Positions 341 to 63,738 are shown, numbered from the whole stretch's first letter. The stretch: 63,738 nt of DNA, filler included, from Rhizaria sp. SCN 62-66 (GCA_001724265.1; 6 parts of 6 records of this genome joined end to end with filler, not necessarily neighbours in it), one strand, 5' to 3'. A program made the numbers and translations. Notes: generated by a model not told the origin, from the sequence alone.

Positions 341-3300
341 ATGCTTCCGCGCAGCCCCTAGATTCCCCAGACAGCGCCCTCGGCACGAGAGCAGACGCCA
401 CGCGCGTTCCGCAAGCTCCAGCTCGCGAACGCCACCGCCATCTCGTCTCTGCTCCCAGCAGTCCCTACTTCAAGCACTGCGACCCTGGCTGTCGCTGCTG
501 CTGCCACGGCAGCGCCTGCACCGATATCTTCTCCCGAGCAGCACGACACCTCCCCCGTGCCCTCGTCTCTTGCGCCCCCGCACCGCATTCGCACCGCGCG
601 CGCGCTCGCTCCCGCCGCGCCGCTGCCCGCCGGCTCGCCCGATCCCGCTGCCCCAGCCTCGCAAGCTCTGGTGTCGGCGGCCCCCCAGTCGCAGACTCTC
701 ACTCGGCCCGCCACAAACCGCGCGCCCATTGCGCCACCCGGCTTCACGGTGATTGCCGGCCCCGCGCTGCACGCCGCGCAGCCGCAGCGCCGCGCTGTGA
801 CGCTCGCAACCGCCACAAGCTCGAGCTCGAGCTCGAGCCCGAATGTGAATGCAAGTGACGCAGGTATGGGACTCAGCGCGAGCTACGGCGCCGCGACGGG
901 TGCCGGCGGCGTGCTCGCGACTACGGACACTGCGAGCGCGATTAACCGCGCTCTCAGCTCGCGCGCGGGCGGCGTGCGCTTCAATTTACCGAGTCCACGC
1001 AGCTACGCTAACACTCTCGCAAACTCTAATACTCTCGCAAACAACGCATATGGCCCGGCGTCACCGGCGCTGTTGCCGCCGCTCTCCCACCCATTTTACG
1101 CTACCTCGTCATCCTCGTTTTCTCCCACATCACTTGTGCCCGCTACAGCTCCGCCCGCGTCAATGTCTGCGTCTGCGTCTGCATCAGGCTTATCGCGGCC
1201 CTACACCGCCGCGAGCGAGCTGGTCAACGCCGCCGCGTGCTCCGCCCTCGCCCTGTCCGCCTCCGTGCAGACGGACTTGCTGTTTCGCCACGCGGCCGCC
1301 GCCGCTGCGGCGCGCCGCGCGCTGCTGCGGGCCGCGCGCGCGCGGGCGCGGGCGCTCGAGCGCGCGCTGCTGCGCGAGGACCGTGCGCTCTGGCTCATTT
1401 CGCTGCTGTTGGACGGCGGGGGCGCGCACGGCGCCGACCTGGCGGCCGCGGGCGTTGGCAGCAGCGACAGTGGCTGTGATTTGCGTGGTGGCGAAGCTGG
1501 CTTCAGAGAGAGCAACAGCGAGGAACAACATCTGCTTCAACAGCAACAACACTATAGCGCTGGCTCTGGCGCGAGTGCTGCGCCTGGGGTGTCGCTGGCC
1601 GTGCTGGAGGCCGTGCGCGCTCTCGAGGCGCGGGCAGCGCGGGAGATGCCGCGCGCACTCGCGCTCATTGCAGACACATCGGGCGGCGCGAACCATGAAG
1701 ACGACGCCGATGCTATTGACAACGCGCTCATCGACGCTCCTGTTAACGATGGAACTGGCGATGACGAGGGTGCGCAGCTGCAGTGCGCTCTGGACAAGCA
1801 ACGCAGCGCGGCCAGCGCAAGTGCTGCTCTCGCGATCGCCGACGCCGGCGACGACGTTGACACTGCACGCGCCCTGCGGACAGATTCAGTTATTTTTCCC
1901 TCTGCGGCGAACTCCGCCACAGCGCGCAACAGCGGTAGCACTGCAGCCGCGACGCGCTCACTTAACACCGGTGAGAATAGTCAAGACGACGAAGACCCTG
2001 ACACTGCTGACGACGATGACGAAGACAATGTTGACGGCGACAGAGATGCTGGCGACTGCAACAGCAGCAGTGCGAAAGCCGCCCACCGCGTACGTCTGCT
2101 GCGCTTCTTACGCGTCGCCGCTCGTTTCGCGCCGGCAGCGGTGCTGCTCCGCGACGCCGACTCCGTCTCCTCCTCCGCGCAGACCGCGAGTCCCACCGCC
2201 TGCGCGGTCGGCGCGGCGTCGGGGTCGGCGGCCAGCACGGCGCGGGCAGCGCTGGCGGGCGCCATGCGCGCGCGGGACGGCATGCGGCCCGCGCTCCTCG
2301 CGCTCACCCACGACAACGACAGCCTGCACAACGCTGGCATCGGTTCGCAGGCTCAACAAGACGGTCGTGGCGCGACGGCGACCGGCAGTTTTGCCGCAAC
2401 TGGTGGCAACACTACGAGCAGCAGCGCTCAGGTCGCCTGGGGCGAAGTGCCTAAGCCTGGCTTCCCGCTTATCTTCTCGAATAACACAGCGATGCGCCCC
2501 CACGCGGACTCCGCCAATAATGGCCACGAGCCCAGCGGTGCGAACCCGCTCGTCCCCCTATCTTCGTCATCGTCATCATCCGCGCTGCACGCCGCCAGCC
2601 TCGGCAACTGCAACGGCTCCCACGACCTGGTCGCCGCGCTGCAATCGGCGCAGTCGCGCATCATCGCCCTCTCGGAGCGCGTCATCGGCCTTCAGTCCAC
2701 CGCGTTGGCGGCCGCAGACCGGCGCCGCGCCGCACGCCGCCGCGCCGCCGCCGCGGGCGCGGTGCTGGAGCGCGCCCACTCGCGCGCGCTGGCGCTTGCC
2801 GCTGCGGCCGAGGCCCGTGCCACAGCGGCGACGGACGCGCTTCACGCTGCGCGGGCCGCGGCCCGCGCGGCGGCGGCGGCGGCGGCCACGCAACGGGGGC
2901 GCGCCGACGCGCTCGAGACCGCTTACGCGGACGCAATTGCCGAGGCGGAGGCCGCGCGCGCCGAGACCGAGGCGGCGCGGGCGGAGACCGCCGCGGCGCG
3001 CGCAGTAGCCATGCGCGCTGCGCGGGCTGCGGCCGCCGCTGCTGCCACCGGCGCCGCCCACGACGGCGCCGACAGCGACGACGGGGCGGCGTTCCGCGAG
3101 CAGGTGGTTACCGCGACTGCTGGGGGCGTGACCGTGGCCAAGGGCGGCGCGGAGGACCCCCATGCGGCCGTGCAAACCGACGCGACGGCGGCGTCGCCGT
3201 CGCCGTCGCCGCCGCCGGCTCCGACGCCCGGTGGTGGCGTCACTGTCGCTGAAGCGCCGGTGTTCAGTGCGGGCGCCGCTGGCTCGCCGCCGGCTGCTGC

Positions 3301-13380: not shown

Positions 13381-13381
13381 G

Positions 13382-13481: not shown

Positions 13482-13483
13482 TG

Positions 13484-30645: not shown

Positions 30646-30950
30646 GCTCTTGAGCGCGAGCGCAGGACAGCGAGAGGAAGCAAATGTTGGTCGATATGTG
30701 TGAATGAGAGTGATGAATATGGTAGGATGACGGTGGTTAATATTCTATGAAAATAACGTTTATGTTGCGGGAGTAATATTATTTGATGTTAGGTCAGGTC
30801 AGAGGAGTTTTTAAATGACAAATTGAGAGGTATTAGAAAGAAATCAACTATATAAACAAGCTTTATTATTAGAAAGAAGCCCAAACTATTTTATCTTAAG
30901 ATTCACATTCAATGCACTTGATCATGCCACGTTGTGCGCAATCGTTAGCC

Positions 30951-32737
30951 TTAGTAGTGCTGCTGCTGCTGCTGTTGCTGCGCCGCTGGAGGCGGAAGGT
31001 ACTGCGGCGCATGCTGCAGCGGGGCGGCGGCGCCCGCGGGCGGCGCCACAGGAGTGGGGGCCACATGCGCGGAAGCCACGCCGTACGCGGCAGCGGGGTT
31101 GCCGTAGAAGTGCTGCTGCCGTTGTTGTTGCTGTTGGGGCTACTGTTGAGACTGGTACATGAACTGCTGCTGCTGAAGTTGCTATTGCGGCTGCATGGGA
31201 TAGCCATAGCCAAACTGCTGCTGCTGCATTGGCTGCTGCTGAGGAGCAAAGCCCTGCACAAACTGCGCCTGCTGCGGCTGGTACTGCTGATACGGTTGCT
31301 GCTGCTGGTACGGTTGCTGCTGTTGAGGCATCACAAACATTCCCTGGGCTGGCATTTGCCCCTGCAGCTGCGCCTGCCCTAACATCATAATTGGCTGCTG
31401 ATGTTGCTGCGGTACAGCATATCCCTGCGGCACTGCATTGTACCCTTGCCGCGACACGCCGCCGTAGCCGTGCTGCACAGCGTTGTACCCTTGCGGCACT
31501 GCACCGTAGCCCTGCGGCGGCTGCGGCGGTGGTGCAGTTGCGCTGTTGTAGGCAAAGTCGGGGGAGATGACCTGGGCTACACCGAAGCCACCGCCCTGCG
31601 GCTGCATTGGACCGTATGCGGATTGCTGCTGCTGCTGCTGCTGCAGTTGCATTGGGCCAGCAGACGCGGCCGCCATGGGAGTAGCCCCAAAGGGCACCCC
31701 AGCAGCAGCAGCAGCGCTGGCGCCATGCATCGCCGCGGCGTCAGCTGCACTCGCTGTGGCCACGACGGCGGGGGCCGCCAGCGCCATGTCGCGCGAGCTG
31801 ACGGGCTTCTTCTTCTTGACTACAGCAGCAGCAGTACTCGCTGCAGGAGCAGCAGCAACACTCGTCGCAGCAGCAGCGTTAGCAACAGCAGAGACGGCGC
31901 CTGCGCGCGACGCCGCGCCGCCAGCGCGGGACGGCGTCGCAGCAGCGCGCAGCTGCACGGTGTTCACGGCCGCACGGCTGCTACTATTGCTACCGCTGTT
32001 GGCGATGATGCCGTTGCGCGACGGGGCCGCGCCTGCGCGCGACGGGGCCGCGCTGCGCACTGCACTCGCACTGGCACAGGCGCCACTGCTATTAGACGGC
32101 GGCTGCGACTCCGACGACTGGAGCGATGACTGCAGCCGCGAGCCGGTGCGACACCGGCTCCTCGCCGCCGCTGCTGAGGCCGGCCCACTGGCTGCCGTCG
32201 AGCCAGCGGCGGCAGATGCAGCGGCAGCGGCGGCAGCGTTGCCGAGCTCGACCGCGGCCTGCGCGGCCGCGATCGACTGCACCACGCTGTTCGGCCTCGG
32301 CGCCACCGCCACTGCCACACCCAAGTCGCCCTGCGGTGCGCTCTGCTGCTGCTGTTGCGGTGCGGAGGAGGTCAAGAAGGACTGCGAGGACACAAGCGCG
32401 GGCGGCCGCGCCAGCCGCGGCCGCGAGCGCGACCGCTCTGCCGGCGCGGCGGCAGACGCGGCCGCAGAGCACGAGCCGGACTGCGACGACTGAGCCGCCG
32501 CGTGCGCGGGGGCGGGGGTGCGGCCGTCGCGCGACTGCGGCCGCGACTGTGAGCGCGAAGGCTCACGGGCCCGGGAGCGGGAGCGGGACGACGACCCCAC
32601 CGCGACCGCGCTGTAGCCGCCCTTGGCGTTCGCAGTCGTGGCTGCGGGCGGGATGCAATCGCGCTCGCGGCCGCGCTCGTACGCCACCACGTGCGGCTTA
32701 ACTTTCCCGCCCGCGCCCACAGTCGCCCCCTTTTTGC

Positions 32738-32772
<35 letters not shown>

Positions 32773-33996
32773 GTCTGCAGCAGCTTGCTGTTGAGCGCCG
32801 CGAGGTCCGCCTCCAGTCCGTCAGCCGCGGCGAACACGGCCGCCAGCGCGCCGTCGTCCTCGTCGTCCCGTTGGCTGTGGCGGACGACGACGGCGGCCGC
32901 GGACGCAGCAGCGGGCTTCGGCTTACTACCAGCTGTCGTCGTCGTCGTCGCCGCAGCAGTCTTACCGCTTTTGCCCACAGCAGCCGCCCCCGCCCCCACC
33001 TTCGCGGCGTTGCCGTTGCCGTTGCTGCTGAGGCCTGAGTCGAGCGCGGCCAGTTCGCGCTCGAGCTTGCGCTCGGCGGCCAGCAGCCGGCCCGTGTCGG
33101 GCCCCACGGAGAGGCCGATGGGGAACGCGCCGCCATCGGTCCCGGCGCCGCTGCTGCGGCTGCTATGGTGGCCGAGGCTGAGGCGAGTGCTGACGCCGCT
33201 CTGAGACTGCTGCTGCTGCTGCTGCTGCGGCGGCGGCGGCTTGCTGTCGAGTTTGAACAGGTGCGCGTCGGCCGCGTAGGGATCGAACACGGGCCCGCGC
33301 CACTGGGGCAGCGACTGCACCGCCTGAGACTAAGACTGCGACTGGGCCTGCGGGTGTGACAGGGCGTGTGGCTGAGGGCCGAAGTGAGGCTGCGCGTGTA
33401 ATTGGGCTTGCGGCAGCAGCTGCAGCTGAGCCTGCGACATCAGCGGCGCATACGGTGCCGCTGCAGCGCCGTTCACGGGCGTGTTGACGCCCCTATGCTG
33501 TTGCTGCTGCTGCTGCTGGTGCCTGTAGGGGGTGGTGGGGCGAAACCCAGTGAATCCTGGGCTGGCGCTGACGTTGCTGCTCAGATGCTGAGCCGCGCCC
33601 CCTCCACTTAGATGACTGCCAGCGCCACTTAAAGTGGAGCCAGGCCGCGAGCTGGGCCTCGAGCTCAAGCCGCCCGCAGCGTTTGCAGCGGCATTGGCAC
33701 CGCTCGGGTTACCGTCGCTTGCGCTGTTGCTGTTGCTGTAGTTGCCACTGCTCAAGCTAGAGCCGGAGCCGGGCGTGGGCAGGCGCGAGCGGAACGACGG
33801 CACCGGCAGCCGCGACGGGCCCACTGCATTGGCACCGGCGCTCGCATTCGCGCTGGCGCTGGCGCTGGCGCCAGGGTCCATGCTGTGCGAGACAGAGGAC
33901 GAGGATGATGCCAAGACAGAGGCAGGAGCGGGGGTGCCTGCGCCAGAGCGCGGCCGCACGGGCCCAAACGCGGCCACCAGCAACGTCGGCGGCGGC

Positions 33997-34029
<33 letters not shown>

Positions 34030-34805
34030 AAAAGCGCAGTGTTTGACACGTAAGCCGCAGGGACAGGGGCAGGTGCAGCGGCGGGCGCAAGAGGCGAGGC
34101 GCCGATGTCAATCGATAGGTCGGCGTCGTTGTCGTTACCGTTGTTGGTGTAGAAGTCCGTCTCTGACTCTGTGATCGAAGCGTTCAGCGCATCGTCGGCG
34201 TTGCTGGCGTTGTTGGCGTAGCTGTGGCCATACACGCTTGCGTGGTTGCCGAGGTTGTTGCGATTGTTGGAGATATTGTTGTCGTCGTCAGCTGTGTAGC
34301 TCATGTCGAATGTGTCGTTGTTTTCGTCGTTCGCCGAGGCAGCAGCAGCGGCGGCAGCAGCGGTGTCAGCGGCAGCGGCGTCAGCCTTGGCTTTGGCAGC
34401 CTTGGCCTCCGCCTCAGCCTTGGCCTTAGCCTCAGCCGCCGCCGCCGCACGCGCACGCGCCTGCTTTTGCGCCTCGGCCTTTGACTTTGCCTGCTGCGCC
34501 TTCGCCTCGGCTAACGCTTGCGCTTGTGCTTGGGCTTGGGCTTCAGCTACTGCATCTGCTTCAGCCTGGGCCTGCGCTTGAGCTCGGGCTTCAGCAGCAG
34601 CATCGGCCTCGTCATAAGCGTTACCACCGCCGTGGGTGTCCTGGTCATGATCGTGGTCAAACGAGAGCTCGAGCGCGTGCATAAGCTCCTGCCCTACCGT
34701 GAATATCTCATCGGCCTCGTCAGTGTTGCGAATATAGTCGTTGCCAGTGCCCGCGCCGAGAGCGTCGACAGCGCCGTGGGGCGCGGCGGCAGGGCGGCGG
34801 GACAT
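30951..34805 (-). CDS. Gln/Ala/Ser-rich disordered hypothetical protein, 1284 aa when three in-frame TAGs (33330-33332, 31182-31184, 31140-31142) are read as sense
   Basis: ORFs 33330-34805 and 31182-33320 are in the same frame and separated only by TAG. The frame continues through two more TAGs in poly-Q sequence to TAA at 30951-30953, after which the sequence turns AT-rich. Confidence 0.85.
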
Positions 34806-39506: not shown

Positions 39507-39510
39507 CACA

Positions 39511-39570
39511 CCGTCCACGCCCGACCATGTCCGACCATGCCCGACCATACCTGGCCATGCTTAACCATGC
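39511..39570. repeat. Degenerate 10-nt tandem repeat (CCGACCATGY, about 6 units) at the contig start
   Basis: ccgtccacgc ccgaccatgt ccgaccatgc ccgaccatac ctggccatgc ttaaccatgc. Confidence 0.75.
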
Positions 39571-42801: not shown

Positions 42802-45800
42802 TTACCTGAGTAACCCATAGGCGCCTGCAACAGTCAAATCTCGGTTGACGCCGCCGTCAATCCACCCAGCACCGACACCGCCGCCGCCACCACCACCAGT
42901 AGTGCTACCAACGCTTCCACCAGTGGTTGCAATCGCAGCGGAGGTTGTCCCAGCTGTTGACGAAGTAAAAGCACTAAAACCGGTCCTATTTGCGTGAGCA
43001 GAAGCAGCTGCGGCAGCAGTGGCAGTGCGCTTTTTGGCTGTCGTCGCATTGCTACTCTGCGTCATGATCGCAGCCCGGTTTGCGTTGGTGTGGGCGTTCG
43101 AGTTGTCGAGGCCGATGCCCCTGAGAGGGCCGCCGACCGAGCGCAAGTGCTCTGCGTGCGTCGCGGCCGCCGGCACAGTCAGCGGCGTCAGCGTTGACAG
43201 TGGCGCGGGCGGCGGCGGTAGCGCGGGGACTAACGCGGACGCAGCAGCAGCGAATATCATAGTGTTCTTGTTATTGCTGGAGTTCGCTTTGCTATCACTA
43301 TTCACGTTCGATTTACCGCTCTTGTTATTTTTGGTCTCAGCAGCTGTTGTGTGCGCAGTGACAGTGGCTGCCAATGAGGATGGCTCTGCCGACAGTGTTG
43401 AAGTTTTGCTGTTCGCGGAGCTTCCGTTGTTGGAGAGTAAGCGAGCTAAGATAGCACTTTTGCTGTTATTACTGATCGTTGCAGAAAGATGAGCACTCTC
43501 AGTTAAAGCACCAGTGACATCAAAGCTGTTGTTTTTCGCGGTGGAGTTGTTTGCACTGCTGCTGATGTTGGTGTTGTGACGAACCTCAGCAACCGCGGCC
43601 GCAGCGAGCTCCGTCGCCGCCGCGGCCGCCTGCCTCTGTTGCTCGGACATCGCACTCGCTGCCGCCAGCGCGCGGCCAATGCCGGCTGCAGCACCAGCGC
43701 CGGCGCGACCGCTTTTGGCCGCTGTGGCAGCGGCGGCGGCGGCGGGGGCGATGGGAGGCAATTGCGGTGGCAAAGGCCACGACAGAAGCTCTTGCCCAGC
43801 TTGCTTGTTCTTCGCGAGAGACAGCGCGACATTGCGGCCGTTACCAGTGCCGGCAATGCTGCTGCCGCTATTGCTATTAGTGGTATTCGAGTACGAGTGA
43901 CTCGTGGTAGGTGCAGTGACAGTCACGAGAGGTGGCAGCGGCGGCATGCGTCTCCTCTTTCGCGCGCTGTTGGGGCCGTTAGCGTTGGCAACTGTCACGG
44001 TCGTCGTTGGAGTGATTAGACCTAGCTCAGCACTACTGTTGGCGTTCGCGTTCAAGCTCGTGTTGGAGCTACTGTTAAGAATGTTGCTCGTTTGTAGCAC
44101 CAGCGGCCAGGGTCCTTCAACGGCAACTGCGACACGGGCAGCTTCTTGCGGCGTCAGAGTCCACACAGAGGTGGGGAGCAGAGCCGACAACACTGCACGG
44201 CGGGCCTCTTCTCCAACTCGATCAGCGTCACTATTGTTGCGATCGTTGCTCACATTGACTCCAGAAACAGGACTTGCGCTGTTGGGACTCATAGCACTGT
44301 TACTGGAGCACAGATTCGCAGCGGCTGTTGCAGCAGCAGCTTCGGCAGCAGTAGCGAGAGCCTTGGCTGCGGCTGCCTTGGCAGTCGCGGGCGTGACTGT
44401 CAGCGAACCAGCTGCGACCGCAGCAGCTGCTGCAGTTGCTGCGCGAGCGGCAGCAGTCGCAGCGGCGTTCGCAGAAGCAGCGTAGCGAGCAGACGCAGAA
44501 GTGTAGCCGCCAGATTCAACGTTTGCCAATTCAGCCGTTAAAGACAGCAAAGCACTGTTACTATTTTTGTTGTTGTTATTGCAGCTGAGTGCAGAATTCG
44601 TTGAAACATGATCAGGCGAGAGTGAATTCGCAATCGTACTACTGTTAGAATGCGTTGTCGGGAGAGATTTGAGTGCTGACACTTGCAATTGCGATAATCG
44701 TGGCTCAAAAGAAAAGCCAGTGTCAGTCGCATTGGTCTCATCATCATCGCCGCCGCCGCCGTCGCCGTCGCCGTGAGATGCACTGAACACGTCGTGCGAA
44801 GAGTCAATGACGACTCCCGCAACACCAGCGCCTCCCATCTCGGCACTGTTGCCGCCGTCACCGGCGTGTGCAGAGGAAGTAGCACTGTCACCATCTTCGC
44901 CACTGCTGCCCAGGGTCACAAAACTCCTCCTCGTGGCGTCGCTGCCGACACCAATGCTGTCACCGTCATCGTTCGCAGTGCCACTACTACCACGATTACT
45001 GTCGTTAGCGAGCATGAGCGCATCGTCGTTGTTTAAGCCGCTGTTGTTATAACTGCTTCCAACGCCACCACCACCGAGACTGTTTGAGTTACTCATCATC
45101 ACTCCAAACAAGTGATTCCCGTCAAAGTGGCCGTGAGCACGCGTGTTATGGTCGACGGAAAACACGCCGTCGCCAAACCTCACCGGCGCGGCCGTCTCGT
45201 CCAAGGCCAGCGGGCGCGCGCGCGCGGCGGCGATGGACGCGGTGGAAATAACGACGCCGCCGCCGCCACGGTGAGCCAAGTGGCCGTGGCCGAGGCCGAG
45301 GCCGTAAGCGCTGCGGCCGTGGCTGTCGCCGGCGTAGCGCAGGCGGGCGTGCGGGGGCACAAGCGCTGCGGAGATAGGAGGAGTGGCGACCCGTAGCGCG
45401 GGAGTGTCTGCAGCACTTGGAGCAGGAGTTGCGACGCCAGGTGTCGCACGAGCTGAGGAGGTCGTTACGGAAGCAGCAACACCAGTCTCTGTAGCAGCGG
45501 TAGCGGCAGCCTTCGCAAAAGAGAGAGTAGAGTCACTGGCTGTTGCAACAGTACTTGCGCTGCTGCTTGAATTCAAGTTGGCAGTCATAATATCAGGTGT
45601 GATTGCGCTTGGCGTGGCAGTAGCGGTCGCAGGTATTGCTGGTGGCGTAGTCGCAGTTGCGACGGAGGCGGTAGGAGCTGAGGCATCTATAACAGTGTCC
45701 GACATTGATGCTGAGGCTGATGCTGAGGCTGATGCTGAGGCTGGGTTTGAGACTGCGGCCCTTGCAGCCAAGTCAGAGACAGATACAACACCACTGCCCG

Positions 45801-48800
45801 CGCCTGCATTAGCAGCAGCAACAGCAGCAGCAGCAGCAGCAGCAGCGGCGACAGTATTAGAGACGCCAGGAGCAGTGACGACAGCACTCGAGTCAGAGTC
45901 TGAAACTGAGATTGGAGCGCCAGCAACATCAGCGGACTCCGTAACTGAAATGACAAGGCCAGCACCGACACTAGAGTTTGAGACGGCACTAAATGCAGAC
46001 GCAGACGCGGGGTCAGAGGAGGAACTTGAGCTATTGCTGTTGCTCTGCGGAGCTGGATCAATGTTGCTGATATTGTTCTGACTGACGCTATCAACAGAGC
46101 CAGAAACGACACTTGCATGGGTTGCAGTTACAGTCGGAGTGTGACGAGCTGCAGCAGGACCAGAAGCATCAATAGTAGGAGAAACGACATTAACACCAGC
46201 AGCAGCAGCAGTTGCATCAGTAACAGCGATGTTAACGCCAGAAGCGCCGATATCAGTAGCGTCACGGCGACTGCGGCTGGTGTTGCCGTCAGCGACACCA
46301 GCCGCGCTTGAGCCAGAACTAGAGCCTGCGAGCGAGATGGCGTTACTGCCAGCGTTGGCGTCGTGATTACTGCTAGTGCTTGAAACAAAAACAGAGCGAG
46401 GGATTTGGCCGAGGGAAAGCACAGGAGTACCTACATTCATGCTGTCACTCAGTGGCATTGAGTCATTGCCGAGCAAGTGACTGTTGGCGTCAGTCTGACC
46501 GTGAGCAGCACGGAGAATCACCCTTGCAGCTGCAGTGTAAGGGTCCTCAGGCGGAGACGGAGGGAGTCCAGTCTTCGATGTAAGTACCTTTTCCTTCTGC
46601 TTGTGTTGTTGCCGCTGCTGCCGATCGAGCTTTTGCTTCAGGAAGAACGCTTTACGATCTTGCTCTTCCTGATCTTTCTTCGCACTCTGTTGTTCTTGCT
46701 CCTCTTGACGCGTTTTGGCCTCCGCCTCCGCCTCTGCCGCCGCTTTTGCTGCTGCTGCTACAGCCGCCGCTGCTTCAGAAAGCGCAGCGGCAGTGGCCAC
46801 CACCTTGCCAGCCTCTGCCTTGGCCTCGCCCTCGCCTCTCCCGTTCCCGTTGTTGGCGTTGGCGGCGTTGGCGTTGGCGCCCAGAGCGGCGAGCAGCGCG
46901 GTGGGCGTGGCGCACCAGTCGCCCGCGCCGGCGCTGCCGTTGCTGTTGGTCGAGTTGGTCCTGCCGTGCGCCGCGAGCGTGGGCAGGGCCAGGCTGTTCA
47001 CTGCGGCCGCAGCCGCGGTGGCCGCGGCTTTTCGGCTGGCAGCGGCTGCTGCCGTCGATGTGATTGTGTGCGCGCGGGCGGACTGGAGCATGAGAGTGAG
47101 GTGCGACCGAGGGCTGAGCGGCGCGGGGGACAGCGGGCTACTTGCAGCGGTGCCACGGGCGCTTGCATCGTTGGCACTCGAAGCTGGAGGAACGGTGATT
47201 GTGAGCGGAGACCTGAGGTGAGAGCCTGGAGTGTCACGAGGACTCGAGACTCTTGCGTTCGCTGCAATGTCGCTCAGACTGTTGCTGTTGCTGCTGTTGG
47301 TGCTGTTGTAGCTGGTTGTCGGTGTCATTTTTGTGAGCACAGAGTTCGAATGTGACTGCGTTAGAGTCTGTAGCGGAGGCTGCCATTGCAGGAACTCAGT
47401 CAAATCACCACCAGTAGCAGGAACAGCAGCCACAGAAGCAGTATTAGTGCTTACACTCGCACTCACGACATTACTTCTCGGCGCGCTTGCAGTCGGACTT
47501 GCAGCGACAATTGTCTTTGTGTTACTGGTGTTCGCGATCGTGTTTGAGGGAGTAATAATCGTCACAGTCTTTCCATTCGGGTGCTTAGACTTTGAGCTCG
47601 ACTTCGACTTCGACTGCGGCGACGAGGACGACTTTGAAGAGGACTTGCTTTCACGGCCACTGCCGTTGACGTTGGAATGAGACTGCGAGCTTGGGCCAGG
47701 CGGCTGAACAACAGCACTTGCACTCGAGCTACCGCCCAGGCTCACAAACTGCTGGTGTAAGTCTGAGAGCGAAGCAAGCGATGGCTTCGCCGGCGCTTGT
47801 TGTGATTGTGACTGCAACTGTTGTTGTTGACGGACTGGCGAGCGCGAGCGCGAGCGCGACTGAGACCGAGGCTGCACCTGTGGCTGTACCCGCGAATCTT
47901 GCTCTTGCTCGACAGCGCTATTGTCCGCCTCAGCTTTGTGGCCAACGTTACTGGCTTTGGCAACCAACGTGATCGCAGTGAACGCATTGTTGCTGCCACC
48001 GATAAGGGACGCCGGCAACGCCTTGGGGCCAGAGGCGAGCCACAGGGTCGGGCCACCGCTTTGCGCACCCGCACTCGCGCTCGTAGGCGCGACAGCAGAG
48101 CTCGTTGCAGTCGAGAGAGACTTTTGTTGCTGCAAAGCAGGCTGCGCGCTACTATCGCTCGGTTTGGCTTGTTGCTGTTTCCGTTGTCTTTGCTTCTGCT
48201 GTTGAGGGGTCGCAAACGTGAGCGACTTCAGCTGCCACCACTCTGTTGTCGCCAGCGCCCTGGACTTCTTACCGTTACCGCTGCCGGCATCATCGTCGCT
48301 CAACGAGTCATTATCCGTGCTGTCACAGACATCGTTGGCGTCAGGGCCACTGCTAGCATCATCGTCGTCGTAATCGTCATCGCCATTACCGTCGTTGCTG
48401 GTCGTGCTTTCCCGCCGCCGCCGCCGCTGCCGCCTCTGCTTCGCGTTCGCGCTGGCGCTCGCGGCGGTGGCCGTGGCGGCCGCAGCCGTTGTCGCTTGCG
48501 AGTCCAAGTCGGTCAGACGCCGCCGCCGCATCAGGTCGGCCTCATTGGCACCGGCACCAGCACGGCGCGCACTCGAGTCAGCACTCGAGTGCTTAGATCC
48601 GTCGAGGTGCATTCGAGCGACGTCCTCACCTTCGCCTTCACCGACTGGCGTAAACAACAGAGACGGGGAAAAGGGGCGGCTTGATTTTGACGATGCAGCA
48701 GCGTTGTGGCTGTGAGCAGCACCAGTAGCAGCATCAACATCACTCGTGCTTGTCATGGTGACGTAGGGGTTGTTTCTACCAGAGTTTTCAGTCCTCGCGT

Positions 48801-51800
48801 TGTTGTTGGCGCTACTGAGTTGGTGACTCTGAGCAGCAGTCTTAACCCGCCATAGCGGCAGGTCCGGCTTGACTTTAAACCCGCGACCACTGCGACCGTT
48901 GGTTGCGGAAGATAGCTCGTATAACTCTTGCTCAAGTTTGCGGATGTCCTTATCTTCCTCATCTTCGTCATCGCTATTCGCAGCAAAGCCGCCTTGCTGT
49001 TTCTGCTGCTGCTGCTGCTGCGGTTGTTGCTGCTTCTCTTTCTTTCGATACAGAATCGAAATCAACTGCTCGTAGTCACTCATGCCGCCTGCAGTGCCGC
49101 TGCTGCTGCTCGTAATGTGCTGCGCCGCCTCGGCCGCCTTGCGCATCATAGCAGCCACCTCCGCGCGCTTGCGCCGCGCGGCCGCGGCCCGCAGCCGCTC
49201 GCCGGGGCCCTGTCCCTGCGCGCCCGCCGCGGCCCACGCGCCGCGCAGCTGCCCCACGCGGCGCGCGCGCTCGCGCTCGCGGTCCAATACCTTGCGGCGC
49301 GGCGCCAGCAGCACGCGCTCCGTCGCGGCCGCCGCAGAGTGCGCGCGGCACAGCCGCGACGCGAACGACAGCAGCTTCGACAGCGTCGGGTTGTGCAGCA
49401 ACAGCGTCGGCAGCGACGGGAACAGTGCTGGCGGTGCTGATGCTGTTGCTGCTGCATCGGTTGCTGCTGGCGCAGGTGTGACCGCATTTGCTGAAGTCGC
49501 GCTCGCGCTTGCGTTTTTCGACTGAGCTCCAACAGTCGCACCGTTGTTGTTGGCACGAGCGCTGTGTTGTTGCTGACCTTGCTGACCTTGCTGCGTGAGA
49601 GCAAGAGCTTGTTGTTGTAGTTGATACTTGTGTTGGTACTCAGCGACCAACGCTGTTGCGGTGAAAAGAGCGGCTAAGGGGTGGGCACGCTTGCGGGCGC
49701 TTAGACTACCTTGCGAAGAGAAGGACGCACTTAGATCTAACGGAGTGCTCGCACGACCATCCGGCTGCTGAGCATTCGTGTACGCGGTGTTAGCGTTCGA
49801 GCGCAAAGCAAGCGCAGCGGTTGCAGCAGCAGCAGCGGAGTTCAATGGAGGAAACATCGAGTGACCGTGAGCAGCCGCGGTGGCAGCAGGACTCCGCTGC
49901 CCGTGAGTCGCAGAGTGGCTGTGCGCCGAGCGTGAGTCAGGGCGAGTGTTAGTACTCGGAGTCATAATGCGTCCAGAAGCAGTGAACGCGGCAGTAGCAG
50001 TCAGTTTGTTCGTCGCAGGGGTTGGGGGAGCGAAACCAAGAGCATTGTAATGCGCGCTGGACAATACAAGCGCAGCACCGGGCGCAACGTTACTCGTCCT
50101 CGAGTGCCGTTTCGTACTCGTACTCGGCTTGCTTGCGCTCATGCTGTCGTTCGTGTTGGGCTTTGTTGGAGACGAAAAGTCAAGCCGCGTCGATTCTAGG
50201 GGAGACTGCTCCTGCCCCTGCTGCTGTTGGCGTTCAAATGACTGGTTTGCGGTTGCAGTAGGACTCAAAGCAACAGCGTCAGTCGCAACGTCAGCCGTAT
50301 TCGTGATGACTGGACCAGAGACTGTTGCGTCGGCGCACATATCGGTCGGATTCGCAGCACAAGCAGTCTCATTGCCGACGCTGTGCGTGTCAGGGACAGC
50401 GTTGTTGTTCGCAACAGCAGCATTTGACGCAGGTGGCGCAGCTGAGTCAGTCTTGTGTTTCAACTGCTGTTCAAGCTGTTCCTGTTGCTCAAGCTGTTGC
50501 TGTTGCTGCTGCTGCTGCTGCTCGAGTTGCTGCTGTTGCTGCGAGAGCAGTGGGGCGTACGTCTGAGGAACGCCTTGCGCTGTCAACGCTTGGGAAGCGC
50601 GCTCATAGGCTGCAAAGTCAGAGTTTCCGCCACCAGTCACCTGGCGCATGTAGGGCGACCGAGCCTGCAACCGCGACTGCGAGCGCGAATGTGAACGCGA
50701 CTGCGAGCGCGGCTGGACTTGAGTGATATTGCGGTTGCGTGACTGTGAACGCGATAGCTGCACAGGTGATAGCGAGCGTATATGCGACGGTAGCAGCGGG
50801 TGTAAGGGCGGGTGCGGCTTAGCTTCAGCACGAGGAGGCTTAAGTTCCTGACTCGCACCAGCAATCTCGCCGTCAGCTGGGTCATTGTTGTTCGTCGCGT
50901 CGTCCTCGTTCATGTTGCCAGAAGTATTATTGCTAAAGCCCTTAAAGCCCGTTGCGCTAACATTACTTGCGTTCCAGTCATCATTACCAACGCTGTCAAT
51001 GGTGTTCTCGTCGATGTTGCCGCTACGGTTCATAGTATCGTCGGTGTTGTTGCTCAGTTGGCGTGACAGACTGTTATTGCTCCAAGCAACGCTTCCGTTC
51101 GCACTCGCGTGAACGCTGTCGTCCTATTCACGGTCACTGCCACTCTCATTGCCGCTGGCGCTGTCATCACTGTTGTTGTCGCTGTTCATGCCAGCAGGGT
51201 CGCCAGCTACGGCGCTGTCACCGACGTTGCTATCAGCGCCGGCAGCGCCGTCAGCGTCGCCATCGATATCGACAGATGCTTTGCTCGCGTTAGAGCTGCT
51301 AATCTTGCTGCGGCCCTTCGACTTGACTTTCTTGCCTTTCTTTCCGCTCACACTGGCACTGGCAACGGCGCTACTACCACTAGGAGTGGTGCTGTTGGCT
51401 TGGTTGTAATTGTTGATTGCAGCCAGCAAGCTGTTTCTGCGGCTGCTGAAGCTCGGCCTCGGACTCAGGCTGCTGTTGCTTCGCGGATTGAAAGGATTAT
51501 TGCTCGCGCTAGAACTGCCACCGCCAAGATAGTTGCTGATGCCCGTGCCACTCAACGCAGCAACTCCACTCACACTGGCCGTGCTACTGTTCAAGAAAGC
51601 AGAGATTGCACTCGAGTTGTCATTCGCGTTGTTGCTGTTGTTGTTGTTTCCGTTATTGAACGACGCGCGCGTCGCCAGGCGAGGGCCGCCGGAGCCACTG
51701 ACACTGCCGTGCAAAGGAGAGCGCCTGAGGGGACTTGTATCAGCACCAGTTGAGGCGTTCACATCAACAGGCGAGCGACGATTGCTGTCGTTTCGATTCA

Positions 51801-53316
51801 ACAAAGACCCATTGTGGCTGTTGCTGCTGCTTATCTGTTGCTCCGGGAGCTGTCCCTGCTGCTGCTGCAGCTGCGGCTGCTGCGCCGAGAGCAGGCTCTG
51901 GCGGCGCGAGGCGGGCCCCAGCGGCGTCGTCGCCCGCAGCGCCGCGACGCGCGGCGACATGTACGGACTTGCGTGGCTCCCGAGGAAGCTGCCCCTGCTG
52001 GGACCCACAAACGGGCTCGCGCTCGCGTTCGCAGTGTGTGGGGCGCCAGCGCTGGCGTTCGTGCCGTTGTAGTGGCCGCGGCTAAAGCTGGGCCGCGGGT
52101 TCGCGCTCATTGACGGCGTGTAAGCGCCGTGCTGCGGCTGATGCGGATGTAAGTGCCCTGAGCTCGGGATGTTGGCGCGCACGCGCGCGCCGGGCGAGGG
52201 CGGCACCTCGGCGACTGTAAGCGACGCAACGGCAAACTGCGCGGCCGCAGCAATGGCAAAGGCGGCGACGGTCGGGGTGGGGGCCGGAGGCAGTGTGTTA
52301 GCCCCGGGAGCAACGGCACTGGAGTCGGCCGTATTGTTCATGTCACTGCAACTGCTGCTGCTGCGAAAGAGTGCGTGGTCATGGGTGTTGGGCAGCGGCA
52401 GCGGGGGGAAGCACGGGGTGTTGCTGCGGTTATGGCTAGCGGCGCTGTCGCTCCTGTTAGGCTCGCCGTCATTGGTGCTGACCTTCGTGGTCGCGTGAGC
52501 GGGCGTGTTGCTGTTATGGTTTGCGCCACTGTTATGCCTGTTACGGTTTGCGCCAGTACTCGTGGAGTGGTGGTCGTGACTGTGAGCGTGCGTGTCGGCG
52601 TTCGCCGCTGCAAAGAGCAAATTGGCAGAAGCACCAACAGCAGCAGTGTTGTTACTGTTGCTGTTGAAGCTACTCCGACAATTCGCCGTGCTCGAGCCAT
52701 CAGTTCGACCGTAAACGGCGCCGGACTGGCCGTGCGCAGTGACAGAGTGGCTGGGAAGGGCGGCGAACGGGCTATGCGCGGAGAAAAAGTGGTTATGAGC
52801 GGTGTCAAAGCGGTCACGCTCACTGTCTGCTTCTAGGCTCGCACAGTTGTCACCGCGACTTACAGCACCGGTGTCTGCAGCGGCAGCAACATTGTCGCCG
52901 TCGCCGCGACTTTGCGCAGCTGCAGTGTGGGGATATGCGCGCGCAGCCACGTCAGCGGTCAAGTCGGACTGACTGTGGTTGTTGCTGTTTCCGTCAGCAT
53001 GGCTATCAGCTTTAGCAGAGCCGGTGTCAGCACCAGAGGCGTATGCTGAAGCATTCGCAGCAGCAAGAGTAGCTGTAGCACTAACATTAGTATCAGTTGG
53101 AGCAGCACCAGCGTCGGCAGTAGAGCTTAGTCCGGCCCGGATCTCAGCGTCAGCCTCTTCCTCGTCTGTAGCAGAAGCCATGACTCTTGCGGCGACGACA
53201 TCGCAGCCGTGCACAGCGGCAGTGGCAACGGCTGAGGACGATGTCGGTGACAGACGGGGGGAGTGGGACTTGGACGGGGCTGGGGGCCCGTATGAGCCCA
53301 GAGCACCGCCGTCCAT
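42802..53316 (-). CDS. Giant single-exon Ser/Ala/Asn/Gln-rich hypothetical protein, 3504 aa when the TAG at 51124-51126 is read as sense
   Basis: ORFs 51124-53334 and 42802-51033 share a frame and are separated only by one TAG (SGSDRE*DDSVHAS). The ATG at 53316 lies just downstream of a CAG acceptor. Ends in TAA-GC. Confidence 0.8.
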
Positions 53317-57346: not shown

Positions 57347-57347
57347 G

Positions 57348-57447: not shown

Positions 57448-60400
57448 TGTAGGCGGTCACAGACAGTGCGGACGAAGACATAACATTCGCGCCGACGGGC
57501 AACGAAAAGCATACGTCGCTGGCACTGAGCAAAACAGACAATGAAAGAACTTGAAAACGCATAGCCAAAGCAAAGGTATCACCAAGTCCGGAGAAGCCAG
57601 GCTCATTCTTTGCGTTATTCGCAGAGTAATAGAATGCCTGCGGACCAATAACAGAAAGCTGGTTTTCTGCTGTTAGAAAGCGCAACGCTGAAGCCGAATT
57701 AACTGGCAACGAAATTAGGGGCAAAAAAATCTTGCCCATGGTGGCGGCACGACACTGGTCTTTAGTAAACCTGTTGTAGTAACTGTGGCCGTTGTAGTAC
57801 TATAGTAGAAAGTATTTAAAGCTGTCGCACTAGCACCAGAAAGTAATGTTATCGTAGAATTTGTGACAGAAGCCAGTGCATCACGGTAGTAGACGTCACT
57901 TGCGTGCAAGTGCGTGATAGTGAGCACGCAATCATCGTTGATTAAAGCAACCTGATATTCAAGCTCAACACGGAATCCAGGTGCGTACGTTACAGTCTTT
58001 CCGTCAGCAGATAGCGTGATCGCATAGCGCTCAAATTCACGGAGCGTTGTAAGCGTTTTTGCAGCAAGAGATCCGCATTGTAACGTTGTGCTGCCCACGT
58101 TAGAAAAGACAAACTTTGCGTTATCATGAATCGCATTTGTTGCAGCAACATCGATCGTGGGAAAGAGGATCATCAGCACGGAACGTGGATTTGGCGACAC
58201 CGCAATGAATGTTGCCGCAGATGCGCGAAATTTAACCGTAAGAGATATAGCGCGTGTATGTCCACTGCCCAGAGAAGTTGGAGTAATAATTACAGAGCCT
58301 GTCAGCGTCTTGCTCCAATCCGAGCGCAGCGATACTGTGCTTGAGCCTTCTTCGAGGATATTGTTCATCATACTATCAAGGTTCATTGCAATCTTGACTG
58401 TCATGTTTCGTGAGGTCACGGCGGGATCAACAGATGAGCCACTGCGCACAACGATAATGGGTGCGTCCGCAGGCCAGCCCTTGTTAAACTGCAGCGACAC
58501 GCGTCGCTCAGCTGGGACAAGAATCTGGTCAACATCAGCAATCGCGGCGTGTGCAGAATCAAGCACCGAGACAGTGAAGGTGTCTGTTGTAACCCAAGGA
58601 ACAATAATCGAGAGATAATAACTCGGTGGAATACCAAGTGCGGGGAGCACCGTGAACGAAATGTCAAACTTGTCGCTGTAAGCGTAACCAGCGATCCCCG
58701 CGACGGGCGGACGCATAGCACCAGCGGTTGTAGCAAACTTTCCGTTAAGGTGCATTGAATACATTGCAACTTGCGTCTTGGGCACTGGTGCCGCCACGGG
58801 TAGTGTTGCTGTCTTGCTCATTACAACTGCTGCACTCGTGCCGTAGTACGCTGCTACGGTGATTGCAGTGTCAGCTGAGGAAGAGCAGTACACACCAGGA
58901 ACATAGGCTACAACCGGGATTGAAGCGGTCTTGATGTGAAACTCAATTTTGTCAACAGCTGGCGTCTTAAATGCTAGCGAGGTGCTTGGATTGTTCAGAA
59001 AGACAACATTGTCGGTGATCAGCAGCGTCTTCGCGGCCACGGCAGGAAAATAGTTGCATGCGGAGCCCATAATCAAAGAGAAGCGCGCCTCGTTAAGCTG
59101 TGCTACAGTCAGGTCTGTGATGTTAATCTTAACGTAGCCCACTGCAGGGTAGTCGCCCTGCGTGCGCGTGCTTAGCGAAAGCGTAGTAGGCAGCTCGGTG
59201 TTGGGCAGCGATGACACATGCGCCAAGTGGCTATAACGAACCAGTCCACCTCGGGAGAGGATTTCCACGGTGAAAGTCTCCAACGCCACCACGGGAATAG
59301 CAAGAGGCAGAGTGGCAATAAGGCTCGGCATCCGCTCAGCAAAGCAGTAGGCGTGGCCTTCGGTCTGCGGGCGCAGGATAATCCAACGCTGTTTGCTAGA
59401 AACTGTTGCAGTTAGTGCCACTGAGGTTGTACCACTGGCTGCGACGTCAGGCGAACTCCAAGTGTACTGTGCGTCGGCCAGTGCTTCCCAGGCCATGTTA
59501 GTGCGCGCAGACAGTGGCGGCGTGAGACGGAAGTACTCTCCCGTGTCAAGCACAATGTCGCCTCCACTGCATAGCGTGGTCGCAGGTGTCAGTGTGTGCA
59601 CAGCAGTGCGCGTAGAAGCTCCAGCAGAGACTGCATCAGTACCAATAGAAGTGTCGCCTCCAGTTAGCATGCCGCGCGGAGCGTTAAAGAGCCCGCTGTA
59701 CAGCACACGCCGGTCACCGGGGCCGACCACAGTCGCAACAATCGACAGCCGCAGCACTGCACGCTCTTCGGTTGCGGGACCGGGCACAAAGCCGTTTGTC
59801 ACTGAAACTGTAATTTCTCCTGATACAGGTAAGTTGCAGCTGGAGATGGGGCAGAGAATGGAATAAGAAACGTTGAGAAATATTAAGTTGTTCAATTCAC
59901 ACTCTACAGCACAACTGTTAAGCGTAGCGGCCGTAGTGCCCGTGCTTGCATTAGCTACAAAGCGCGCGGCAAAACGACCACCCACGACTTCGATTTCCGC
60001 AAACAGCGCGCTCGAGATTGTGTTCGCATAGTACGACAACACGGGCTTCATCACAAGTAACCCGTTGTGCGAAGTCTGAGATGCGGCTTTAAACGTAGGA
60101 TCCACTCCGGTCAGCGCAATCACACCCAACGGTGGGCGCATCTGTCCGACAGCCCGGCGTGCGGTACCAGAGCGCAATTCAATTTCAAGCTGTTGCTCGA
60201 CGAGGAAGCTTGTCGCCGAAATGAGCACCTCAAGAGTAAGCGCGGAGTACCCGCTGGCAAGACAGCTGGTCAGCACAATTGCGGCGCCCGCCGTTGCCGG
60301 CGTGCACGCCGTAGGGACTGGTGTTGGACTAATGCGCGTCGCACTCTCGAGCCGCACATCGATCGGTGTGGTGTGCGGTGAGGCGGCACGTGTCACGAGC

Positions 60401-63400
60401 GCGAGGGTCATGTTGGGCGTAATGTCAAAAAGACCAGTCCACGTCACAATGCACCTCATCTGATAGCGCGTCTGCGAGAGATCCATGGTACAATCCGCGG
60501 TTGCGTACACAGACCGGAGACCTGCGGCAAACGCATTGCTCGAGACAGTGTACGTTGAGCGTGTATCCTGCTTTAGTGCGCTGTAGCCAAGAGAAACGGC
60601 ACGATCAGCCTGCGTACCGTTGGCAGTAAGCGTGTTGAGCATTGAATAGTGCTCAAGAGCAACTGTGACAAGCTCGGGTGTCTATACCAGCGTTAGCGTC
60701 ACACTGGTGACAGTTAAGACAACGTTGACGTCGACCATAGTGCTGATGTAAGGAATTGTAATTTTGCCGTTCGTGGGCACAGACACCGCGGGTGACGCAG
60801 TATCTGAATCAACCTTGACAGTATATTTTGCATTGCTGTAGGTGAATCCGGTCAGCGGCAATTGCGCCGTCCAATACTGAAAAGCCACACTGTTGATTGC
60901 CGTGGAGTCACGCAGAGTGATTGAAAAAGAGCGCACTAGAGGTGAAGAAGCAGTGGCGGTGACCTTAAAGGCTGTTGCCCGGAATGGCATTGTGGGTGGC
61001 GTCAGTTGCTGCCGAATCATGCCAGCAGGCATGCGCACGGGGGCAGTGGCGTAGGGCCGCGTCAGCCCGGTTGAGGTCTCTTGAATGTACACAGTCACTG
61101 ATGTAAAAAGAGGAGCTATGCCAGCAAACGTTGCTATTACAGGTATGCGGATGGTACACGGTGCAGTCCGCAGACAGACACCTGTAGCAGTCGCGGGCGT
61201 ATTTGGACCAAATTGAACCGCACTAGATACAGGAGACATTACCTTCCAGTCAATCTTGCTTGTGCTTACAAAACCGCTGTGGCTGGAAAATGTAAGTCCA
61301 CTAAAGTCGCGGAGAATTGCAAAAAATGAAAAGTCATTGCCCGCAGACACAAAATTTTCATCACCTAAGTCAAGACTCAGATGGTAATTAGTACTTTGAG
61401 TCGTGTCAGTGCTCAGCGTGCGGTCAAGCTCGGCCGTCAAAAGTGGGCGCGTCCAAACAGGCATCATGGGAACACCTGTGATAACAGTAGTGTCGTATGA
61501 CATCTTAACAGAAATGCAGCCAGGACCCAAGTACGGCGTTTTTTCAACGTTGTCAAGTGTTGTAGGAAAGTTAACGAATTCAAAGCCAAACGCAAAGACG
61601 TCCTTGTTGCCCCAATGTCCACCAGTGCATGTGGCAATAAGCTCGGAGCCCCCCGACGAGGTGCGACTACAACTCGAACTAAGGTTGTAGAACGTGGCTA
61701 AAGGAGTAATTGTCAGTCCCGTGGGGCAGTTGTCGGCTGTGGAGTTGGAAACTGTCACGATGACATTGACAGAGATCGCAGGAATGGGCACAGTAAGCAC
61801 AGTGCGGATGTCAACACGCGCTTGCTGCACAGACGCTGTCGAGCTGCGCACAAGCAGCACATCGTACATAAACGCGTTGGGCGGCGGGATGGACCCGATG
61901 TTAACACTGTGCAGCGCTGTGATTGCGGTCGAGGTCGATGCATCAACAAGTGTGAAGCATGAGGCGGGAACCAGCCCTGTTGCAGCGTATGATGTCTTGT
62001 GAACATCTTTCATAAAATAAGCAGACTCCATCTGGAATCCAACAAATTTAGGCTGCGCGGGCATACACGCTGCAGGCATCGACATTTGATCAAAACCACT
62101 ACTGTAGCGGCTAACACACGTTGAGTTTGTGGTTACGCTATTGATCAATGTAACAGGCTTGCCAGTAATAAAGACACCACAATTATTTTGCAGAATAAAG
62201 TGGTGCGTGCTGAGTTTACTTGCGTGAGGAAACAAATACAAATGGATCTTGGCAGTCAAGTCCGTACTCGCCCATGCAATTTTGGTGAGTACTGTAGTAA
62301 ACTGAAACGGCGGATCGTACGACAGAGGTGCGCCAAGCGAGGAGCCAAGAAACGCTGGCACTGTTGTAGAATATGTTCCTGCAATCACATAAGTGTTCGA
62401 AATTACAAAGCTAAAATCAGAGGCATCAAAAAATGTCGTCTCATATGGGACAGTAAAATGTCCTGTGTAAAACGAAAAATACATCGCAGGTGAAATCGAT
62501 GGTTCGCAGGTAATGTTGCCTTGTGTAGCGACTGGACAAGTGCCAACAAACGCCGCTGAGCTTGAGGCCATGCCTAAACTAGCACTGTAGGTATACTTTA
62601 CAGTAGCGGTTGAAATCCGTTTGAAGAAGAAGACGCGCACGAGGTAGTTTTGCTGAGATGAGCCGGTTACTGTTGGCGTCAGTGTCGTAGCGCCGGTAAC
62701 AGTTGCAGATGTAACCTGCGTGGAATAGAGCGCAGCTACAGCGCTCGGCTTTGAGTCCGCGGCTACGATAGTGTCGTCGGACATGTCTGTGTTCTGTTGC
62801 CGGACACTCACCCCAGAGACGGTGGCCAAGGCACCTTGTGCTGTGCTGTAACTCTTAAACATCGAGAGATAGTTGGCGTAGGTTGACGTGACAGGACCAA
62901 AGCGGAACACACGCGGCGCATAGTAGTTACTTGAGCCACTTACAGCGCTACAGTCGCTTACGCTTACAACAGTTGCGCTGGTGTAGCTGACTGTGCATGT
63001 TACCTTGGTAAGTCCAGTGCCGGCCGTGTATGAGGTAACAATGGTTGTGTTAGTTGTCATAACAGCACGTAGCGCAATTTCACTTTGCATTGTCAACGTG
63101 AAGCCCCATCCGTTTGGGAGTGAAGTATGAGCATACACAATTACTTCGTACTCCATATTGACCAAAGCAGCATCATGGGTTGTCATACTAAGATCAATAC
63201 CAGAGCTAAGACTTGCGCGTACGGGATAAAACACGAAGTCAAGCTGGCGTGAGTAAGGCGACACTGTTTGCACTGTACTAACTGCGCGGGCAATCGACTC
63301 CATGCTAAAGCATGTCAGGTCCAACGAATAACGCGCTGTGTTGGCCACATCAAAGGTGATTGACGTTGCCGTGCTCTGGGTGACGCGGTAGTCGCCCGAC

Positions 63401-63738
63401 GGCGTAATGGAGCTTGAGGCCGTAACAAAAGAGATGTCGCTGCACGACGAAGACACAGTATATGGGATGTCGCTAGCGTTTGGGTTAGTCGCATAGAAGT
63501 AGATTCGCATGTTGACTTGCAGCAGGCGCGTCGTCGACAGGACAGAGCTTCTTACAAGTACACGGTTGATCGGGACCATGTGCCACCAGTAAGCGGCGGT
63601 GCCACTTGCACGAATCACAAAATCGGTGAGCGCTGGAATTCCTGTGGTGATCTCAGGTGAGGTGAGCTTGAGTGCGTCCTTGCTGATCACGTACGGGTCG
63701 TTGGTGGACACACGTGAAGCTTCGTTAGCAAACACAAC
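57448..63738 (-). CDS. Very large Ser/Thr/Val-rich, probably extracellular beta-rich protein, open at both ends; in-frame TAG at 60682-60684 and one frameshift near 57723-57729
   Basis: ORFs 60682-63735 and 57715-60642 are in one frame, joined through a single TAG (VTLTLV*TPELVTVALEHYSM). A -1 shift at a T7 run links to ORF 57392-57739, which stays open to the linker. Confidence 0.72.

Follow-up and report, generated by a model that had tools for sequence, protein, structure and literature searches.

In-frame TAG codons in a GC-rich uncultured eukaryote suggest that UAG is a rare sense codon, most likely for glutamine

The locus considered here lies at positions 30951..34805, on the minus strand, of a 63,738-base window (the whole stretch of DNA that was analyzed, listed as Rhizaria sp. 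SCN 62-66, GCA_001724265.1), which consists of six metagenome contigs joined by N44-TTAATTAATTAA-N44 spacers. It holds a 1,284-codon coding sequence, from ATG 34805 to TAA 30951-30953, that is interrupted by three in-frame TAGs, and it raises the question of whether UAG still terminates translation in the organism concerned and, if not, which residue it specifies. We consider it probable that UAG is a rare sense codon there, representing about 1% of the glutamine codons and most likely read as Gln, with UAA and UGA retained as stops, which corresponds to NCBI translation table 15.

Reading frames interrupted by TAG

The three TAGs of the focal gene are found at 33330..33332 (CAG TCT TAG TCT CAG, inside an (SQ)n stretch, QSQS[TAG]SQ) and, in a Q-rich domain, at 31182..31184 (CCG CAA TAG CAA CTT, MQPQ[TAG]QLQQQQ) and 31140..31142 (CAA CAG TAG CCC CAA, YQSQQ[TAG]PQQQQQ), all on the minus strand. 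A preliminary description of this DNA had reported three TAGs in glutamine contexts and a frame closing at TAA 30951, and the positions, strand, contexts and frame end are all borne out; the terminal TAA is followed by GGC TAA, and GC content falls from 0.75 to 0.33 across it. The focal frame is the sole long frame at its locus, with GC contents of 0.71, 0.58 and 0.76 at the three codon positions, and encodes a low-complexity protein, Ala/Gln/Lys-rich in its N-terminal part and Q/P/G/Y-rich in its C-terminal domain, that matched no Pfam family. A homolog search with residues 300-940 found nothing at E<=1e-5, probably because the candidates were overwhelmed by low-complexity words, so the result is silent on relatives.

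Two further minus-strand frames carry one firm TAG each. The first belongs to a giant gene of 3,505 low-complexity codons (42802..53316, with its TAA end at 42802), in which the TAG at 51124..51126 (GAA TAG GAC, ..SDRE[TAG]DDSV..) is followed by 2,774 codons free of TAA and TGA. The second is a partial gene, p6 (57715..63738), of at least 2,007 codons, which leaves its contig at 63738; here the TAG at 60682..60684 is codon 1019 (TLTLV[TAG]TPELV). A putative sixth TAG, at 359..361 on the plus strand, would be codon 7 after ATG 341 of the contig-1 gene, whose exon 1 extends to 5515; it is uncertain because it stands in a stretch of weak coding signal, and it may belong to the 5' untranslated region. 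The earlier count of six in-frame TAGs in four long genes on four contigs therefore stands as a count, five of the six being firm and located in three genes. Three other candidates were rejected as coding: TAG 21312 lies within an intron, TAG 25537 within a 5' leader, and TAG 5641-5643 is the 3' end of intron 5516-5643.

That the TAGs are real DNA is shown by several assemblies. L001, a metagenome contig assembled separately, is 100% identical to window positions 29741-33756, all three focal TAGs included, and the same three are covered by Logan contigs of run X1, which span 26909-32167 and 33248-33972 with 0 differences at a depth of about 30, although X1 may be the sample from which the window itself came. 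At the p6 TAG, open reading frames (ORFs) in other assemblies end exactly at 60682 (P0014 in a JGI assembly; P0017 on 2 ENA contigs, the longest of 60,309 bases), and another, P0018, found on 4 ENA contigs, restarts past it. We thus give very little credence to the possibility that the TAGs are consensus or assembly errors, or that U-to-C editing of the mRNA restores CAG: the agreeing runs and contigs may share the window's source sample, and the TAG sites are covered by no RNA contig, but the focal TAGs recur in both L001 and X1, the p6 ORF boundaries recur on 1, 2 and 4 contigs of the JGI and ENA assemblies, and diverged relatives have independent in-frame ORF breaks of their own. Contigs of the polyA RNA run X5 at 30804-31126 and 31210-31545 place the focal region, including sequence 3' of TAGs, in an RNA library. 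Of 368 letter differences between run contigs and the window, the 42 listed include none at a TAG site, which is no proof of sameness. A metagenome scan for more DNA of the organism returned L001 alone, identical to the window. Exact look-ups of the N-terminal part of the focal protein, the two parts of the giant gene, the Nrap protein and the contig-4 gene 35388-38354 gave no match, which probably reflects the choice of start and is not evidence of absence. Contig joints and unattached ends at 27146-27170 and 30958-30981 were disregarded as low-complexity cross-matches from other organisms.

The frames remain open past the TAGs for longer than chance would allow. Among 17,539 coding codons examined in the window we counted 6 TAG, 0 TAA and 0 TGA, in agreement with the earlier statement that no TAA or TGA falls in frame save at two frameshift sites. 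When the stops expected after each TAG were computed from the TAA and TGA densities in each gene's two remaining frames, the 793 codons past the first focal TAG should have held 8-16 TAA/TGA (P 3e-4 to 1e-7), the sequence past TAG 51124 should have held 59-135 (P below 1e-25), and that past TAG 60682 37-40 (P below 1e-16); none was seen in any of them. Open frames broken by TAG only can occur by chance antisense to genes rich in GC at third codon positions (GC3), and one such trap is present in the window, a minus-strand frame at 25653-30230 with 9 TAG but neither TAA nor TGA. The frames that carry the TAGs are of a different kind: no second long frame shares the locus with any of them, and for one there are homologous proteins.

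These observations bear directly on the possibility that the code is standard and that the TAGs are premature stops, mostly CAG-to-TAG transitions, in dispensable or decaying genes, for example pseudogenes among numerous genes for fast-evolving surface or disordered proteins. Under that explanation, three nonsense sites would have arisen in one 1,284-codon gene, yet the gene shows no frameshift, TAA or TGA, and the firm genes stay open for 793 to 2,774 codons past their first TAG. Furthermore, 5-6 lesions per 17,500 codons, affecting 3-4 of about 12 genes, would be implausible for an abundant free-living organism.

A changed code also predicts that TAG should not close genes, and we found it at no gene end. 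Eight ends are credible, five of them TAA (12934, 30951, 42802, 56417 and 57203) and three TGA (24771, 30643 and 38859), so that the preliminary description was correct in listing no TAG end and wrong only in its count of nine. TAA 57715 was rejected as a natural end, since it lies past a one-base frameshift and homology to P0012 continues in another frame; the end of the contig-1 gene was rejected as well, since the gene goes on through intron 5516-5643 and off the contig. Across all eight ends GC content drops from 0.62-0.77 to 0.33-0.54, with no such drop across any of the six TAGs, and at TGA 30643 the Nrap_D6 domain match stops 13 residues short of the stop codon. UAA and UGA thus still terminate, at the fall from GC-rich coding sequence to AT-rich flank. 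The base that follows is G after seven of the eight terminal stops versus one of the six TAGs (Fisher P=0.016), which hints that the organism favors a particular context for termination; the G-followed stops are those at 24771, 30643, 30951, 38859, 42802, 56417 and 57203, and the dinucleotide is mostly GC (TAA-GCT, TGA-GCT, TAA-GCA and similar). The six bases after the TAGs (ATTCCC, TCTCAG, CAACTT, CCCCAA, GACGAC and ACACCC) contain no common motif of programmed read-through, whether CARYYA or a C as the next base, the latter being present in two of the six.

The residue at UAG in p6 and its relatives

The p6 gene is the one TAG-bearing gene for which relatives could be compared. An exhaustive search gave 10 matches, in metagenome assemblies only (ENA, Logan, MGnify and JGI); a second search, aimed at shorter proteins, returned P0012 and P0014 and nothing new, and searches of genome_contigs and viral_contigs gave 0 relatives of p6. 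The family (57715-63738 and P0006-P0018) is lineage-specific and Thr/Ser/Val-rich, reaches 7,944 residues in P0010 and has no Pfam match. One member, P0016, repeats a module of about 900 residues within a single protein; in p6 itself, no internal repeats that could supply paralogous columns were found.

The closest relative, P0006, is 76% identical to p6 and has Glu in the column of TAG 60682 (TLTLV-E-TPEVV versus TLTLV-TAG-TPELV). Identity between the two is 72.7% upstream of the TAG (739/1,017) and 83.7% downstream (338/404), with 4 gap columns; therefore, the downstream sequence has been kept under constraint, which argues against decay after a premature stop. The ORF of P0006 in turn ends just before a CAG of the window, Gln 1424 of p6 (59467-59469, minus strand), and P0012, 75% identical to p6, resumes 16 codons past that end. 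Likewise, P0016 and P0007, on contigs of 18,916 and 61,173 bases, end where the 56%-identical P0008 has Gln, and the end of P0015 falls on Gln 479 of p6 and on a Glu of P0006, P0016 resuming four codons on, on an equally long contig. The relatives' breaks are known by position, as ORF ends, and not by the identity of the stop codon there.

Taking the clean breaks, that is, those spanned by a homolog at least 56% identical, the nearest homolog has Gln in three of four and Glu in one, the Glu case being the window TAG aligned with P0006. Gln makes up only 2-3% of p6-family proteins, and at least three Gln in four would be expected by chance with P=6e-5 or, under a nonsense-mutation model based on the codon usage of p6, with P=0.002-0.04. 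That all four clean breaks fall on Gln or Glu has P=0.0008-0.007 under the nonsense model, which argues further against premature stops in a standard code. The ORF end of P0008 was left out of the count, as its spanning homologs are only 24-28% identical, and so were the ends of P0009 and P0011, which are preceded by non-homologous tails. The columns of the TAG and of the breaks are not conserved in distant homologs.

The same alignments raise the possibility that UAG is a sense codon for glutamate, or for another residue, and not for Gln, a proposal to which we give little credence. In its favor are that, of the window TAGs, the single one for which a close homolog exists faces Glu in P0006, that P0006 also has Glu at the P0015 break, in the column of p6 Gln 479, and that TAG 51124 is embedded in the acidic stretch SDRE[TAG]DDS; in addition, peritrich ciliates use UAA and UAG (UAR) for Glu, according to PMC11687900. 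A single Glu column is nevertheless weak evidence, since Gln and Glu exchange readily, and Gln occupies the nearest homolog at three of the four clean breaks, once on a CAG of the window. Moreover, two of the TAGs stand in a Q-rich, essentially uncharged domain and a third in an (SQ)n repeat. Glutamine therefore remains the preferred assignment.

One feature of p6 speaks to the integrity of the family. In a frameshift zone at 57723..57732 (minus strand) one base is out of register at a T7 run (57723-57729), and similarity to P0012 can be followed in another frame up to the end of the contig. Because this ORF end recurs on 4 contigs (P0018), the frameshift probably exists in the DNA and did not arise as a single assembly mistake; it may represent a lesion in a pseudogene, an allele that is truncated or a site prone to slippage.

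Rarity of TAG and the remaining explanations

Several observations weigh against a reassigned UAG. The ratio TAG/(TAG+CAG) is 6/562, or 1.1%, compared with 18.6% for TTG/(TTG+CTG), and the conserved genes of the window, encoding Nrap, a PX-WD40 protein and an Ephrin-receptor-like protein (GC3 about 0.9), lack TAG altogether. A plain nonsense model would make 61-66% of new stops TAG, so that six out of six has P=0.05-0.08; similarly, the chance of finding no TAG among eight ends is 0.03-0.27 for an assumed TAG usage of 35-15%. The sole window TAG, of six, with a close homolog aligns on Glu. The p6 frameshift recurs, and the family may contain pseudogenes, because of that reproducible frameshift and of the non-homologous tails of P0009 and P0011. 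Finally, the X5 RNA contigs lie on either side of the pair of C-terminal focal TAGs without crossing them, the five tRNA genes of the window are all Val(AAC) and include no tRNA with a CUA anticodon, and the window contains neither an eRF1 gene nor a conserved housekeeping gene bearing a TAG.

All in-frame TAGs of the window occur in low-GC3 genes only: the TAG-bearing genes have GC3 values of 0.53-0.76 and are long, weakly codon-biased and fast-evolving. Premature stops in a standard code have several points in their favor: no other genes of the window show as little conservation or codon bias as the TAG genes (compared with a GC3 of about 0.9 in the conserved genes), TAG is the expected product of most random nonsense mutations at the 61-66% given above, and its frequency is some 17-fold below what the comparable TTG/CTG ratio would indicate. 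Signs of damage can be added: the p6 frameshift on 4 contigs, a second gene frameshifted at 11750-11800, and the tails of P0009 and P0011, which look out of frame. Set against the long open frames, the higher conservation of p6 past its TAG, the Gln and Glu columns of the relatives' breaks and the absence of TAG from every gene end, we regard this explanation as unlikely.

Low usage can also be accommodated if UAG is ambiguous, that is, a terminator with useful read-through by a weak suppressor or near-cognate tRNA-Gln, giving mixed products and representing an intermediate stage of reassignment. The very low TAG usage, the lack of TAG in strongly codon-biased genes, and the fact that only eight ends are available (P=0.27 for none of eight if TAG usage is 15%) are all compatible with ambiguity. 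On the other hand, with three TAGs in one gene the losses of product would compound unless read-through came close to completeness, the six TAGs have no read-through context in common, and TAG closes none of the eight genes; we thus consider an ambiguous UAG quite unlikely.

If UAG is instead a full sense codon, it would specify an amino acid, glutamine being the likeliest, and termination would be left to UAA and UGA alone. By analogy with Iotanema and ciliates, this decoding may depend on a CUA-anticodon tRNA resembling tRNA-Gln, or on near-cognate reading that is efficient, and by analogy with other lineages in which a stop codon came to specify Gln, an eRF1 with weakened recognition of UAG may accompany it (PMC5304391). 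The preliminary description's proposal of a UAG=Gln code thus draws strength from TAGs that are real, frames that are open and conserved beyond them, the lack of TAG ends and Gln at three breaks, and it is weakened by a sole alignable window TAG that falls on Glu and by a TAG usage of about 1%.

With regard to tRNAs, the five identical tRNA-Val(AAC) genes lie within 2.2 kb, at 40249-42486, in the orientations +,+,-,-,+ and in an AT-rich spacer beside the giant gene; a T run comes directly after the two at 40249 and 40772. An exact search with the 72-base tRNA-Val sequence found 0 copies in genome_contigs or viral_contigs.

Host, neighboring genes and known codes

The six contigs (1-5898, 5999-13381, 13482-18850, 18951-39406, 39507-57347 and 57448-63738) have GC contents of 0.52 to 0.73. 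They are eukaryotic, with GC-rich exons separated by AT-rich spacers and by GT..AG introns of about 130-240 bases, and DNA of the window is present in metagenomes from bioreactors, wastewater, activated sludge and microbial fuel cells, including one polyA metatranscriptome (small-share runs X7-X15 being left out of this habitat evidence). The best explanation for their source is an uncultured, GC-rich, intron-bearing eukaryote of bioreactor and wastewater communities. Introns were located at 5516-5643 in the contig-1 gene, at 21189-21431 in the two-exon gene 19959-24773, near 38290-38510, and at three places in the PX+WD40 gene 53999-56419, where they are AT-rich and of the GT..AG type. Spacers and introns have 33-54% GC over the whole window.

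The conserved neighbor of the focal gene is an Nrap/UTP22 gene (25750-30645, plus strand; GC3 0.90), with matches to six Nrap domains, without any TAG, and with TGA 30643 as its end. It encodes the sole widely conserved protein of the window, and its best match in a homolog search was 29% identical (matches including Tilletia and Chlamydomonas); as a marker to place the organism it was dropped on account of this low identity, the Atlas having given generic Nrap clusters only. The PX+WD40 gene (53999-56419, plus strand; exons 53999-54589, 54797-55174, 55357-55641 and 55823-56419), also free of TAG and ending at TAA 56417, shares a contig with the giant TAG-bearing gene at 42802-53316. Neighbors on one contig differ very widely in GC3, as in Nrap (0.90) versus the focal gene (0.76) or, on contig 39507-57347, PX-WD40 (above 0.8) versus the giant gene (0.60).

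The two-exon gene 19959-24773 encodes a probable surface protein, with at least 10 Ephrin-receptor-like Cys-rich repeats, a Sushi domain, and a probable C-terminal membrane-spanning stretch followed by a short tail. Run X4 carries a variant of 20356-21517 that is about 97.7% identical, with insertions and deletions restricted to the intron. Searches for relatives of the Nrap and Ephrin-like genes in viral_contigs gave 0. On contig 2, the gene that starts at 5999 has a GC3-rich frame that shifts at about 11750-11800, in a GC-rich low-complexity stretch, and then runs to TAA 12934; the shift is either an assembly error or a real frameshift.

Comparison with known codes draws on two papers (PMC5304391 and PMC11687900). 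According to these, UAA and UAG nearly always change together, and the nuclear cases in which UAG alone has changed are few, namely, Iotanema, exLh and some phyllopharyngean ciliates. In the fornicate Iotanema spirale, UAG encodes Gln and UAA is a stop, on transcriptome-wide evidence and with a changed GTS motif in eRF1 (T32G) (PMC5304391). The organism studied here resembles it in being a non-ciliate eukaryote in which UAG alone is apparently reassigned, probably to Gln, with UAA and UGA as stops, and differs in its GC-rich exons (contigs of 52-73% GC) and very rare TAG, and in being known here from six contigs. Table 15, with UAG uncoupled from UAA, is likewise found in the phyllopharyngean ciliates Hartmannula sinica and Trochilia petrani, in which UAG accounts for 18-32% of the Gln codons and is present in about 80% of genes (PMC11687900); by contrast, UAG here represents about 1% and is confined to 3-4 of about 12 genes, a usage so far below theirs that it has to be added to the observations weighing against reassignment. 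Phyllopharyngeans also have a GC content of 27-54% (PMC11687900), compared with up to 73% in the window contigs, which, unlike theirs, hold several genes each, with introns of 130-240 bases.

In the rhizarian exLh and in phyllopharyngean metagenome-assembled genomes from TARA, UAG was again reassigned independently of UAA, in these cases to Leu (PMC5304391, PMC11687900), whereas the contexts and homolog columns described above favor Gln, with Glu as second choice, and not Leu. Capture of a stop codon for Gln is shared as well with the lineages of table 6 (UAR=Gln), which include many ciliates, Hexamita, Streblomastix, ulvophycean algae and Amoeboaphelidium (PMC11687900). Table 6 itself does not fit here, as TAA closes five of the eight genes, each time where GC content drops, and is absent in frame, and neither do codes in which all stops are reassigned or context-dependent, of the Condylostoma and Blastocrithidia types, given 0 TGA and 0 TAA in frame in 17,539 codons. 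No description of such an organism was found in the literature searched, most subscription journals and supplements being outside that search. We judge the chances about even that an undescribed GC-rich wastewater lineage has independently uncoupled UAG from UAA, reads it as Gln, uses it very rarely and shares this code with relatives 34-76% identical.

To conclude, the UAG=Gln code is in itself already known, but a GC-rich, apparently non-ciliate host and a very low usage of the codon would be notable. In practical terms, gene calling of wastewater eukaryotic contigs under the standard or bacterial code splits genes at TAG, as the fragments P0014, P0017 and P0018 illustrate. If true, the reading proposed here would widen the known range of UAG-only reassignment and show the process at a stage that is early or restrained, in which the capture of a stop codon at low usage in a GC-rich genome, and its spread, could be studied through tRNA supply, eRF1 change and GC-biased mutation.

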